From IMG/VR virus record IMGVR_UViG_2693429622_000012: DNA of 4,592 nt. One strand, given 5' to 3'. The stretch comes from a virus. Its lineage: Duplodnaviria; Heunggongvirae; Uroviricota; Caudoviricetes. Within the stretch, counting starts at the first letter, position 1, and each line of letters begins with the position of its first letter. The position numbers and the translations under genes were made by a program. The notes below the pieces were generated by a model, which saw nothing but the letters and a program-made list of their open reading frames with translations, made no database searches and was not told the DNA's origin. This document shows, piece after piece, positions 342 through 695 of the stretch.

Positions 342-695
342 TTGATTGAGTGTTTGTTATACGGTCTAATGGTTTTTTCAGCATTAAATATTTATCATTC
401 ATATGGTGTGGGTAGAGTGAATATTGATGAGGCGTCGGGGTGTTTCATCCTTAGGCAGCGTATTGATATAGTCAATGCAGCACGAGCAAAGGCCTTCAGC
501 CGTTTGACAGTTTTGTTCTGTACTCCTGATCGTCTTTCGGGAAGAGACGTTATTATTCTGAATAGTGATGCTATACAGAGGGTTTGCGATGAGTTCATGG
601 TTGCTAATTCAGAATTATTTGCTCTTGTTCAGGAGTACAACAGAATAGCCAGGACCTGTGGTATGGATGAACTTCGGATTACTCATCTGGGGTAG
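342..695 (+). CDS. Hypothetical protein, cargo (moron) candidate, no recognisable family
   Basis: 117-codon ORF (TTG at 342; in-frame alternatives ATG 369, GTG 408, GTG 417, the last with a GGTG/GGGT Shine-Dalgarno-like stretch upstream). Immediately downstream of tRNA-Arg with no terminator in between. Lies inside a segment absent from the paralogous locus at 2155-2188. Start codon uncertain and no homology recognised. Confidence 0.4.
   Translation: MIECLLYGLMVFSALNIYHSYGVGRVNIDEASGCFILRQRIDIVNAARAKAFSRLTVLFCTPDRLSGRDVIILNSDAIQRVCDEFMVANSELFALVQEYNRIARTCGMDELRITHLG

Follow-up and report, generated by a model that had tools for sequence, protein, structure and literature searches.

A conserved 92-amino-acid protein gene in the late-region cargo slot of lambdoid prophages, a candidate exchangeable moron

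The 4,592-nt stretch of DNA analyzed here (the window; IMG/VR virus record IMGVR_UViG_2693429622_000012, Caudoviricetes) carries on its + strand, directly after a late-region tRNA cluster, an open reading frame (ORF) that runs from TTG 342 to the TAG stop at 693-695 (117 codons), with further in-frame start codons at ATG 369 and GTG 417; positions are those of the window unless a locus is named. An earlier note, made from the letters of the sequence, had proposed this ORF as a gene of unrecognised family in a cargo slot, and its coordinates, its translation and its three candidate starts are all borne out by the sequence. The in-frame TAA at 336-338 prevents any extension upstream, and the ORF is indeed not part of a longer gene, as had been stated. 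Comparison with relatives points to a shorter unit, a gene of 92 amino acids (aa), and to the following arrangement:

417-695 (+): protein-coding gene of 92 aa with a GTG start and the TAG stop at 693-695 (conserved frame and length, dN/dS ~0.26, 85/85 copies intact, PHROG match)
342-416 (+): in-frame upstream extension with TTG 342 and ATG 369, probably an untranslated 5′ leader (lack of coding constraint)
405-408 (+): Shine-Dalgarno-like GGTG, 8 nt before GTG 417 (read from the sequence; putative function)

Taken by itself, the length of the ORF is weak evidence for a gene, given that Markov-1 simulations of region 232-900 (41% G+C) produce an equally long stop-free run, in one of the six frames, in 4% of cases (p ~0.04), and it is the comparative evidence that is decisive. 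Two diverged copies from E. coli, L004 (ETEC6333) and L005 (isolate 07-4299), with 72% and 67% nucleotide identity to the window gene, respectively, both hold an intact ORF of exactly 92 aa whose start, GTG-AAT-ATT-GAT, corresponds to GTG 417. Neither alignment contains a single indel over 279 nt. Differences at codon positions 1/2/3 amount to 19/19/40 for L004 and 24/23/44 for L005, i.e., about twice as many at third as at first or second positions, and the Nei-Gojobori ratio of non-synonymous to synonymous substitution rates (dN/dS) is 0.26-0.27 in the ORF frame as against 0.8-1.25 in the other two forward frames. The antisense frame that shares third positions gives the expected shadow signal (ratio ~0.4) and is interrupted by stop codons in the window and in L005. 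Among near-identical copies drawn from IMG/VR and from genome loci, 85 of 85 ORFs are intact, with six synonymous and five non-synonymous variant sites, and in a distant branch of the family the core of the Morganella (L092) and Serratia (L094) genes has a ratio of non-synonymous to synonymous differences (pN/pS) of 0.23. On such comparisons, 417-695 is almost certainly a real gene of 92 aa, and one that evidently evolves under purifying selection.

An opposite view, that the frame is non-functional, being either a chance opening or a decaying remnant in a non-coding spacer, could draw on the modest length statistic, on a GTG start with a weak Shine-Dalgarno (SD) sequence, and on the annotation pipeline PGAP, which leaves the region without a gene in all sampled near-identical RefSeq copies. 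It is countered by selection that acts in one frame only, by the lack of indels at 67-72% identity, by the 85 intact copies, by homologues down to 21% identity that keep the same length and align with invariant residues, by a confident AlphaFold2 model, and by PGAP itself, which annotates the L004-type homologue in RefSeq as WP_001017777.1. These comparative data already largely refute this view, which is held to be extremely improbable. A reading of the region as a non-coding RNA was also considered and rejected: Rfam at E ≤ 1 finds nothing in region 232-900 except tRNA, and the small RNA STnc100 starts at 928.

Conservation also places the true start at GTG 417 and the coding unit at 417-695, which replaces the 117-codon product of the earlier note: the 25 upstream codons are unconstrained, and are frameshifted or replaced in relatives. 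The sequence upstream of the L004 gene is entirely different from that of the window and offers no upstream start codon, while the upstream frame that opens with TTG does not share the register of the GTG in nine of nine L005-type copies, and ATG 369 is AAT in L005. Over the 60 nt of the extension that can be aligned between the window and L005, synonymous and non-synonymous differences are nearly alike (pS 0.50, pN 0.40), and equally so in each of the three frames; the variant sites of the extension within the window clade are one synonymous and five non-synonymous, and one copy has a 1-nt deletion. The same GTG-AAT-ATT-GAT start is preceded at comparable spacing by a good SD sequence, AGGAG, in L004 and by GGTG (at 5-8 nt) in L005 and the window, and the family-wide alignment puts the N-terminus at the position of GTG 417 (MNID.../MSEINFE...). 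A product of 92 aa follows from the upstream sequences of L004 and L005, the neutral behaviour of the extension and this aligned N-terminus.

The longer forms deserve consideration because gene callers behind GenBank and metagenome records usually give proteins of 108-118 aa. Under such a reading, the functional product would start at ATG 369 or TTG 342, comprise 108-117 aa and be anchored in the membrane by a hydrophobic N-terminus, MIECLLYGLMVFSALNIY. Most window-type copies, and also a P0021-type relative, keep the extension open, and an 11-codon extension in the Serratia/Morganella subfamily looks coding (pS 0.54, pN 0.09). Such a product is nevertheless very improbable: pN/pS in the extension is ~0.8 in every frame, its variants number one synonymous to five non-synonymous, one copy is frameshifted, all nine L005-type copies are out of frame, the L004 type has no extension, the KD19 hydrophobicity of 1.43 lies under the usual transmembrane threshold, and no SD sequence stands ahead of 342 or 369. 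A coding extension or leader peptide was examined separately, with regard to a Y.L.VFS motif and a TCA/AGC serine switch common to the window and L005, and was rejected on the equal pN/pS in the three frames and on the ratio of one synonymous to five non-synonymous variants within the clade.

The 11-codon extension of the Serratia/Morganella/Xenorhabdus branch is an observation in its own right. It has the form M-x-[IV]-[QH]-Y-[IV]-L-[KR]-[GE]-Y-[SA], differs mainly by synonymous changes, and probably brings the proteins of this branch to 110 aa; the same stretch also holds the AAGGA SD sequence of the second ATG, which makes its coding signal ambiguous. Its position, identified by pS/pN, is as follows:

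L092 5968-6000 and L094 5968-6000: 11-codon extension upstream of the annotated start

At the protein level, the 92-aa product is a plain member of PHROG 2873, a family of unknown function from which it does not differ in any respect noted here. The match to the hidden Markov model (HMM) of this family covers its full length (E=5.6e-58, 194.8 bits, residues 1-92 on profile positions 17-108 of 108), and the homologues of L004 and L005 match it as well (~1e-46). A second PHROG of unknown function, phrog_4827, is matched more weakly (2e-5 to 5e-8) and may represent the Serratia/Morganella branch. As no function is assigned to PHROG 2873, membership says nothing on mechanism. Scans of Pfam, NCBIfam and PADLOC with the protein and its homologues give no meaningful match: none of the PADLOC-DB v2 defence HMMs is reached at E ≤ 1 by the window protein or by the L004 and L005 homologues, and 21 diverse family members searched against Pfam at E ≤ 1 give scattered sub-threshold noise only, with no toxin family and no match to IraP, Rop, Hha/YmoA, PerC or DUF2312. 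The description of the family as unrecognised is thus right for Pfam, NCBIfam and PADLOC and wrong for PHROG 2873 and for the many database entries called hypothetical protein. The product is also, as had been claimed, not StxA- or StxB-like, Pfam at E ≤ 1 returning a single sub-threshold RHIM match and the 92-aa product having no hydrophobic N-terminus. It is kept in related prophages, so that none of the findings named in the earlier note as counting against its proposal applies.

Few proteins belong to the family: 21 representatives at 50% identity come out of an exhaustive HMMER search (E ≤ 0.001) of 1.84 billion representative proteins. Further members, from Citrobacter, Salmonella, Xenorhabdus, Morganella and Serratia, were reached by a profile search of a 5.8-billion-cluster collection. 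Wherever a source gives a name, it is hypothetical protein, barring one evidently spurious GGDEF label. Across these searches the family is restricted to Enterobacterales, where its genes are found in prophage late regions and on plasmids. The alignment of 21 sequences (A5, down to 21% identity) has three invariant residues, R23, N64 and N75, and three that are nearly so, L12, V71 and A78. In the literature collection searched, no paper names WP_001017777, phrog_2873 or ST64B sb55, and the 92-aa gene is absent from the LF82 moron table. Catalogues of phage proteins already list the family, as uncharacterised, and the evidence points to no unusual mechanism.

The 92-aa product has a mass of 10.4 kDa and a pI of 5.7, and no membrane span is found in it (maximum KD19 0.94). 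AlphaFold2 with a 21-sequence alignment gives a confident model (predicted local distance difference test, pLDDT, 87.4; predicted template modelling score, pTM, 0.73), with five concordant models at 85-87, and a 3-sequence alignment gives the same topology. The model comprises a helix at 3-33, an extended loop at 34-49 with a beta-bridge, a second helix at 50-81 and a C-terminal tail, in which an alternation of hydrophobic residues hints at a strand; the loop, too, is beta-strand-like in sequence. The protein is accordingly modelled as a long antiparallel two-helix hairpin, predicted to be cytoplasmic, and it has no enzyme-like motif. Foldseek searches of PDB and BFVD find no match at E ≤ 0.001, only generic hairpins. 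Rop, GapR and prefoldin-type hairpins are structural analogues only, without significant sequence or profile relation to the 92-aa protein (Foldseek E ≥ 0.2), and since the helical hairpin is among the commonest folds, this resemblance carries no functional weight.

The fold does raise the question of a small nucleic-acid-binding regulator, i.e., a dimeric helical hairpin like Rop, which acts on an RNA kissing complex, or like the GapR/UPF0335 DNA clamp. A sequence-profile search of PDB ranks GapR/UPF0335 chains first, with matches to helix 1 and the loop (E=0.058-0.17), a Rop variant appears at E=0.96, and Arg and Asn, the residue types that are invariant, are frequent in nucleic-acid contacts. 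These indications are offset by an hhalign probability of 24% for the family profile against a manually entered GapR sequence, by the lack of any DUF2312 or Rop match in Pfam at E ≤ 1 in any member, and by the acidic or neutral character of most members; the pI is below 7 in 17 of 21, which argues against a DNA-binding role. A regulator of this kind is considered unlikely. Membership in GapR/UPF0335 (DUF2312) itself was rejected on this low hhalign probability; the top PDB profile match (E=0.058) covers 37 residues only.

As to the genomic setting of the gene, the window is a composite scaffold in which pieces of at least two related lambdoid prophages meet at N runs 995-1006 and 3738-3744, so that only 1-994 provides reliable context and the order beyond 994 cannot be trusted. 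Positions 1-994 are collinear with the reference prophage L104 at 99.3% identity. Within this part, the gene has the following neighbours:

1-51 (+): 3′ portion of the cluster's first tRNA, with anticodon CAT, tRNA-Ile in the RefSeq relatives L001 and L104 (Rfam match 5′-truncated by the window edge)
155-231 (+): tRNA-Arg (TCT) of the late-region tRNA cluster, directly upstream of the gene (ARAGORN, Rfam)
340-762 (+): exchangeable cassette carrying the 92-aa gene, approximate (BLAST similarity borders)
731-862 (+): 43-aa DUF3927/TciB-like ORF, immediately downstream (RefSeq DUF3927 label; phrog_1470 match to profile positions 23-51 of 54)

The order in complete genomes is Q antiterminator, 65-aa ORF, N6/N4 DNA methyltransferase, tRNA-Ile, tRNA-Arg and an unannotated 500 bp with the 92-aa gene, followed by DUF3927, IraM (- strand), nanS-p esterase, holin and lysozyme; the E. 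coli loci L001, L002 and L104 read Q-(methyltransferase)-tRNA-tRNA-gene-DUF3927-...-holin-lysozyme. The gene hence sits between the Q antiterminator and tRNAs on one side and the lysis cassette on the other, as stx does in Stx phages, and its assignment to the stx-equivalent slot holds. The stx1 and stx2 operons occupy this very position on the late-operon strand, with Q, pR′ and the Ile/Arg tRNA cluster before them and nanS-p and the S-R-Rz lysis genes after; no fetched locus holds both the 92-aa gene and stx. The protein itself is related to neither StxA nor StxB in sequence or fold, and is a single small helical protein without a signal peptide, not an AB5 toxin.

Similarity borders indicate that the gene came into this slot as a discrete unit. 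Similarity to L005-type copies starts at 340 (query 109 of 232-730), similarity to diverged copies is restricted to ~340-700 (for the class of 128 diverged records to ~340-670, essentially the ORF), and similarity to tciB of phage JLK-2012 starts at 763 (query 532 of 232-900). As JLK-2012 has an intact tciA(TerB)-tciB pair in the same slot, with the 92-aa gene absent, the cassette is taken to span ~340-762, apparently in place of tciA and the 5′ end of tciB. The same backbone from Q and the tRNAs to the lysis genes thus occurs with the 92-aa gene, with tciA-tciB (JLK-2012) or with other cargo, which is the pattern of insertion that defines a moron. In this respect the gene resembles the classical morons (Juhala/Hendrix; bor and lom of lambda), being a cassette that is present in some and absent from other close phages. 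Occupants of the slot include the 92-aa gene, tciA-tciB, TolA-domain proteins and IraM; bor, lom, tciB and TolA-like proteins are envelope proteins, whereas the 92-aa protein is not.

The downstream 731-862 ORF appears to be the 3′ portion of tciB fused to new 5′ sequence, and instead of being functional it may be left over from recombination. Every sampled RefSeq copy nonetheless annotates it, and it could lie on a common transcript with the 92-aa gene. JLK-2012 TciA and a 141-aa ORF of Citrobacter match Pfam TerB, whereas the 92-aa protein does not, and the Citrobacter homologue of the 92-aa gene lies upstream of an intact TerB-like/DUF3927-like pair, so that the gene is separate from tciA. 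A functional link to tciA/tciB was rejected: JLK-2012 has tciAB without the gene, L004, Morganella and Serratia have the gene without tciAB, and the association is judged to be co-location in a shared slot.

The region is widespread in E. coli, being found at ≥95% identity in 1183 of 5426 complete genomes (~22%, distant-mode BLAST), including ST131 and Shiga toxin-producing E. coli (STEC), and a further 128 records in the same search carry a diverged type at 60-80% identity. Among 50,697 phage records, one carries the window-type gene or a close relative, namely mEp460_ev081, a temperate phage of the infant gut that is not an Stx phage and in which the 92-aa gene is unannotated. Beyond E. coli, the order is Q, methyltransferase, the gene, holin and lysozyme in Morganella (L092/L093); Q, the gene, two small ORFs and lysozyme in Serratia; and tRNA-Thr, ..., the gene, the TerB-like 141-aa ORF, a DUF3927-like 50-aa ORF, holins and endolysin in Citrobacter. 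The homologue Sb55 of Salmonella phage ST64B lies just past the lysis genes. A sister clade (34% identity) is found on E. coli plasmids beside K88-like fimbrial operons, and another, on IncF plasmids, closes a type IV pilus operon.

These neighbourhoods allow for a role in the phage cycle itself, i.e., an accessory factor for late expression or lysis timing, such as a cytoplasmic regulator of holin or antiholin, rather than cargo directed at the host. Members stand directly before the holin in Morganella (L092/L093) and near lysis genes in Serratia and Citrobacter, Sb55 of ST64B follows its lysis genes immediately, and the gene shares the strand of the late operon in all phage loci examined. 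Up to four unrelated genes, however, lie between the gene and the holin in E. coli, related lambdoid phages lack the gene and have tciAB or stx in the slot, terminators separate the gene from the lysis genes in L004, L092 and L094, and the plasmid relatives are flanked by fimbrial or type IV pilus operons without lysis genes. A phage-cycle factor is given little credence on this balance, and accessory cargo is considered a good deal more probable than a core phage function.

Intrinsic terminators mark the borders of the gene in several relatives. A strong one follows it directly in L004 (4334-4351), L092 (6306-6323) and L094 (6372-6393), another lies ~130-150 nt upstream in L092 (5834-5856) and L094 (5846-5870), and one is visible in L008, downstream of 5276. 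In the other phages the gene would in this way be insulated on both sides, as expected of an autonomous moron ahead of lethal lysis genes. In the window-type prophage, the scan of 200-1000 finds no terminator between tRNA-Arg and the gene, and because the gene is not separated from the upstream tRNAs, its transcription is proposed to be mainly Q-dependent. On induction, Q-modified RNA polymerase from pR′ would then transcribe it as it does stx2; Q-dependent transcription of stx on induction is described in two papers (PMC8065619, PMC6266700). Transcription of the gene as part of the late operon is held to be likely. Expression in the lysogen, if any, would come from read-through of the tRNA cluster.

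Several late-region cassette borders in E. coli, Citrobacter and Morganella share G+C-rich GCTCGCTACGGCGAGC-like terminator hairpins, including one at 2166-2195 of the window; the terminators of Serratia L094 correspond to them in border position. In L004 and L008 the hairpins are followed by a conserved stretch, ...GGCGCACATCAAAAACACAGAGCCTTTCAGG.... Such border hairpins may double as recombination junctions between cassettes, besides serving as insulators.

Taken together, the best explanation overall, which is favoured with some reserve, is that the gene is an exchangeable, non-essential moron cassette of the lambdoid late region, between the Q/methylase/tRNA block and the lysis genes, and that its 92-aa product acts by binding another protein. 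The protein could form an oligomeric helical bundle that binds and modulates a host protein, or one from a competing phage or element, a speculative step. That R23, N64 and N75 are invariant, that most members are acidic to neutral, and that a sister clade resides on plasmids without nearby phage genes is the basis for this idea; the invariant Arg/Asn/Asn, the charge and the plasmid relatives would, speculatively, fit protein binding better than a lysis-specific or a DNA-binding role. As a claim of its own, a protein-binding modulator is possible and tentative. A virulence, defence or anti-defence function, as had been suggested, is inferred from the position in the slot.

A number of observations weigh against this explanation. 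From the start codon back to the nearest tRNA or terminator ahead of it, consensus scans of the window, L092 and L094 reveal no convincing sigma-70 site on the + strand; the nearest promoter candidate in L004 ends 110 nt upstream, and in the window as well as in L004 and L005 a TAT(C/A)AT hexamer ~20 nt ahead of the GTG has no -35 partner. The window likewise has no terminator after the gene up to 1000, so that two classical hallmarks of a moron, its own promoter and a downstream terminator, appear to be missing here. The GGTG before GTG 417 is a weak SD sequence, RefSeq/PGAP has no annotation over the gene in 36 of 36 sampled near-identical genomes, and expression of the gene is predicted from comparison of sequences. 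The strong association with lysis cassettes in several genera, finally, could mean a role in the phage cycle.

The slot between Q and lysis is one of very high, induction-coupled expression, and houses Shiga toxin and other conversion genes of lambdoid phages. A conserved and selected occupant of this slot in ~22% of complete E. coli genomes is a reasonable target for toxicity, phage-exclusion and anti-defence screens, even as one among very many hypothetical phage morons. With RefSeq omitting the window-type gene in all sampled near-identical genomes and other callers usually starting it too far upstream, pangenome, Tn-seq and proteomic analyses based on such annotation may miss or mis-size it. 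It is conceivable, if rather doubtful, that the family represents a new class of small helical-hairpin effector, made in bulk from the late operon on induction and directed at a protein of the host or of a rival phage (in superinfection exclusion, anti-defence or the stress response), with the plasmid relatives doing likewise for conjugative elements.

The remaining observations concern the surroundings of the gene and the assembly of the window. In L005, a 241-aa ORF (3256-3981, +), called helix-turn-helix domain-containing protein in RefSeq, lies 90 nt upstream of the homologue; from a first impression of its sequence it is a candidate AraC-family regulator, presumably like the prophage-encoded PatE/Psr-type regulators of STEC. 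Upstream of the window gene, a degenerate copy of tRNA-Arg (TCG) lies at ~61-140 (+; compare 1988-2064), in a segment that aligns to the intact cluster at 1927-2166 with 87% identity overall; neither ARAGORN nor Rfam calls a tRNA at ~61-140. A full copy of the CAT-anticodon tRNA is called at 1905-1980 by ARAGORN.

Four scaffold segments were distinguished, 1-994, 1007-2166, 2190-2412 and 3744-4562. The second, with the 3′ part of the methylase and the tRNAs, stems from a second prophage, is only 94% identical to the same region of L104 and duplicates the tRNA cluster, and the last matches L104 at 99%. Beyond the first N run, the window contains the following features:

1007-1864 (+): N6/N4 DNA methyltransferase, 3′ two-thirds, cut by the N run (Pfam PF01555, E=2.6e-31)
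2231-2420 (+): small RNA STnc100, full copy (Rfam RF02076, 123.6 bits)
2594-3737 (-): copy of IS600, an insertion sequence (IS) of the IS3 family, 99.7% identical to annotated IS600

A listed ORF at 914-1864 is an artefact of reading across the N gap. STnc100 is also present as fragments, its 5′ part at 928-994 just downstream of the DUF3927 ORF, where the N run interrupts it, and its 3′ end at 3745-3805, past the second N run; in the reference genomes the STnc100 gene lies between DUF3927 and IraM, within the same cargo slot. A 111-aa ORF at 3837-4172 (-) occupies the site annotated as anti-adapter protein IraM in the collinear L002 and L104, with no significant Pfam match, and by this position the cargo region also carries a likely RpoS-stabilising factor. 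The terminal 38 nt (4555-4592) belong to a second IS600, which truncates the DUF1737/nanS-p esterase ORF starting at 4432, and the multiple copies of IS600 suggest a Shigella-like or IS-rich E. coli host.

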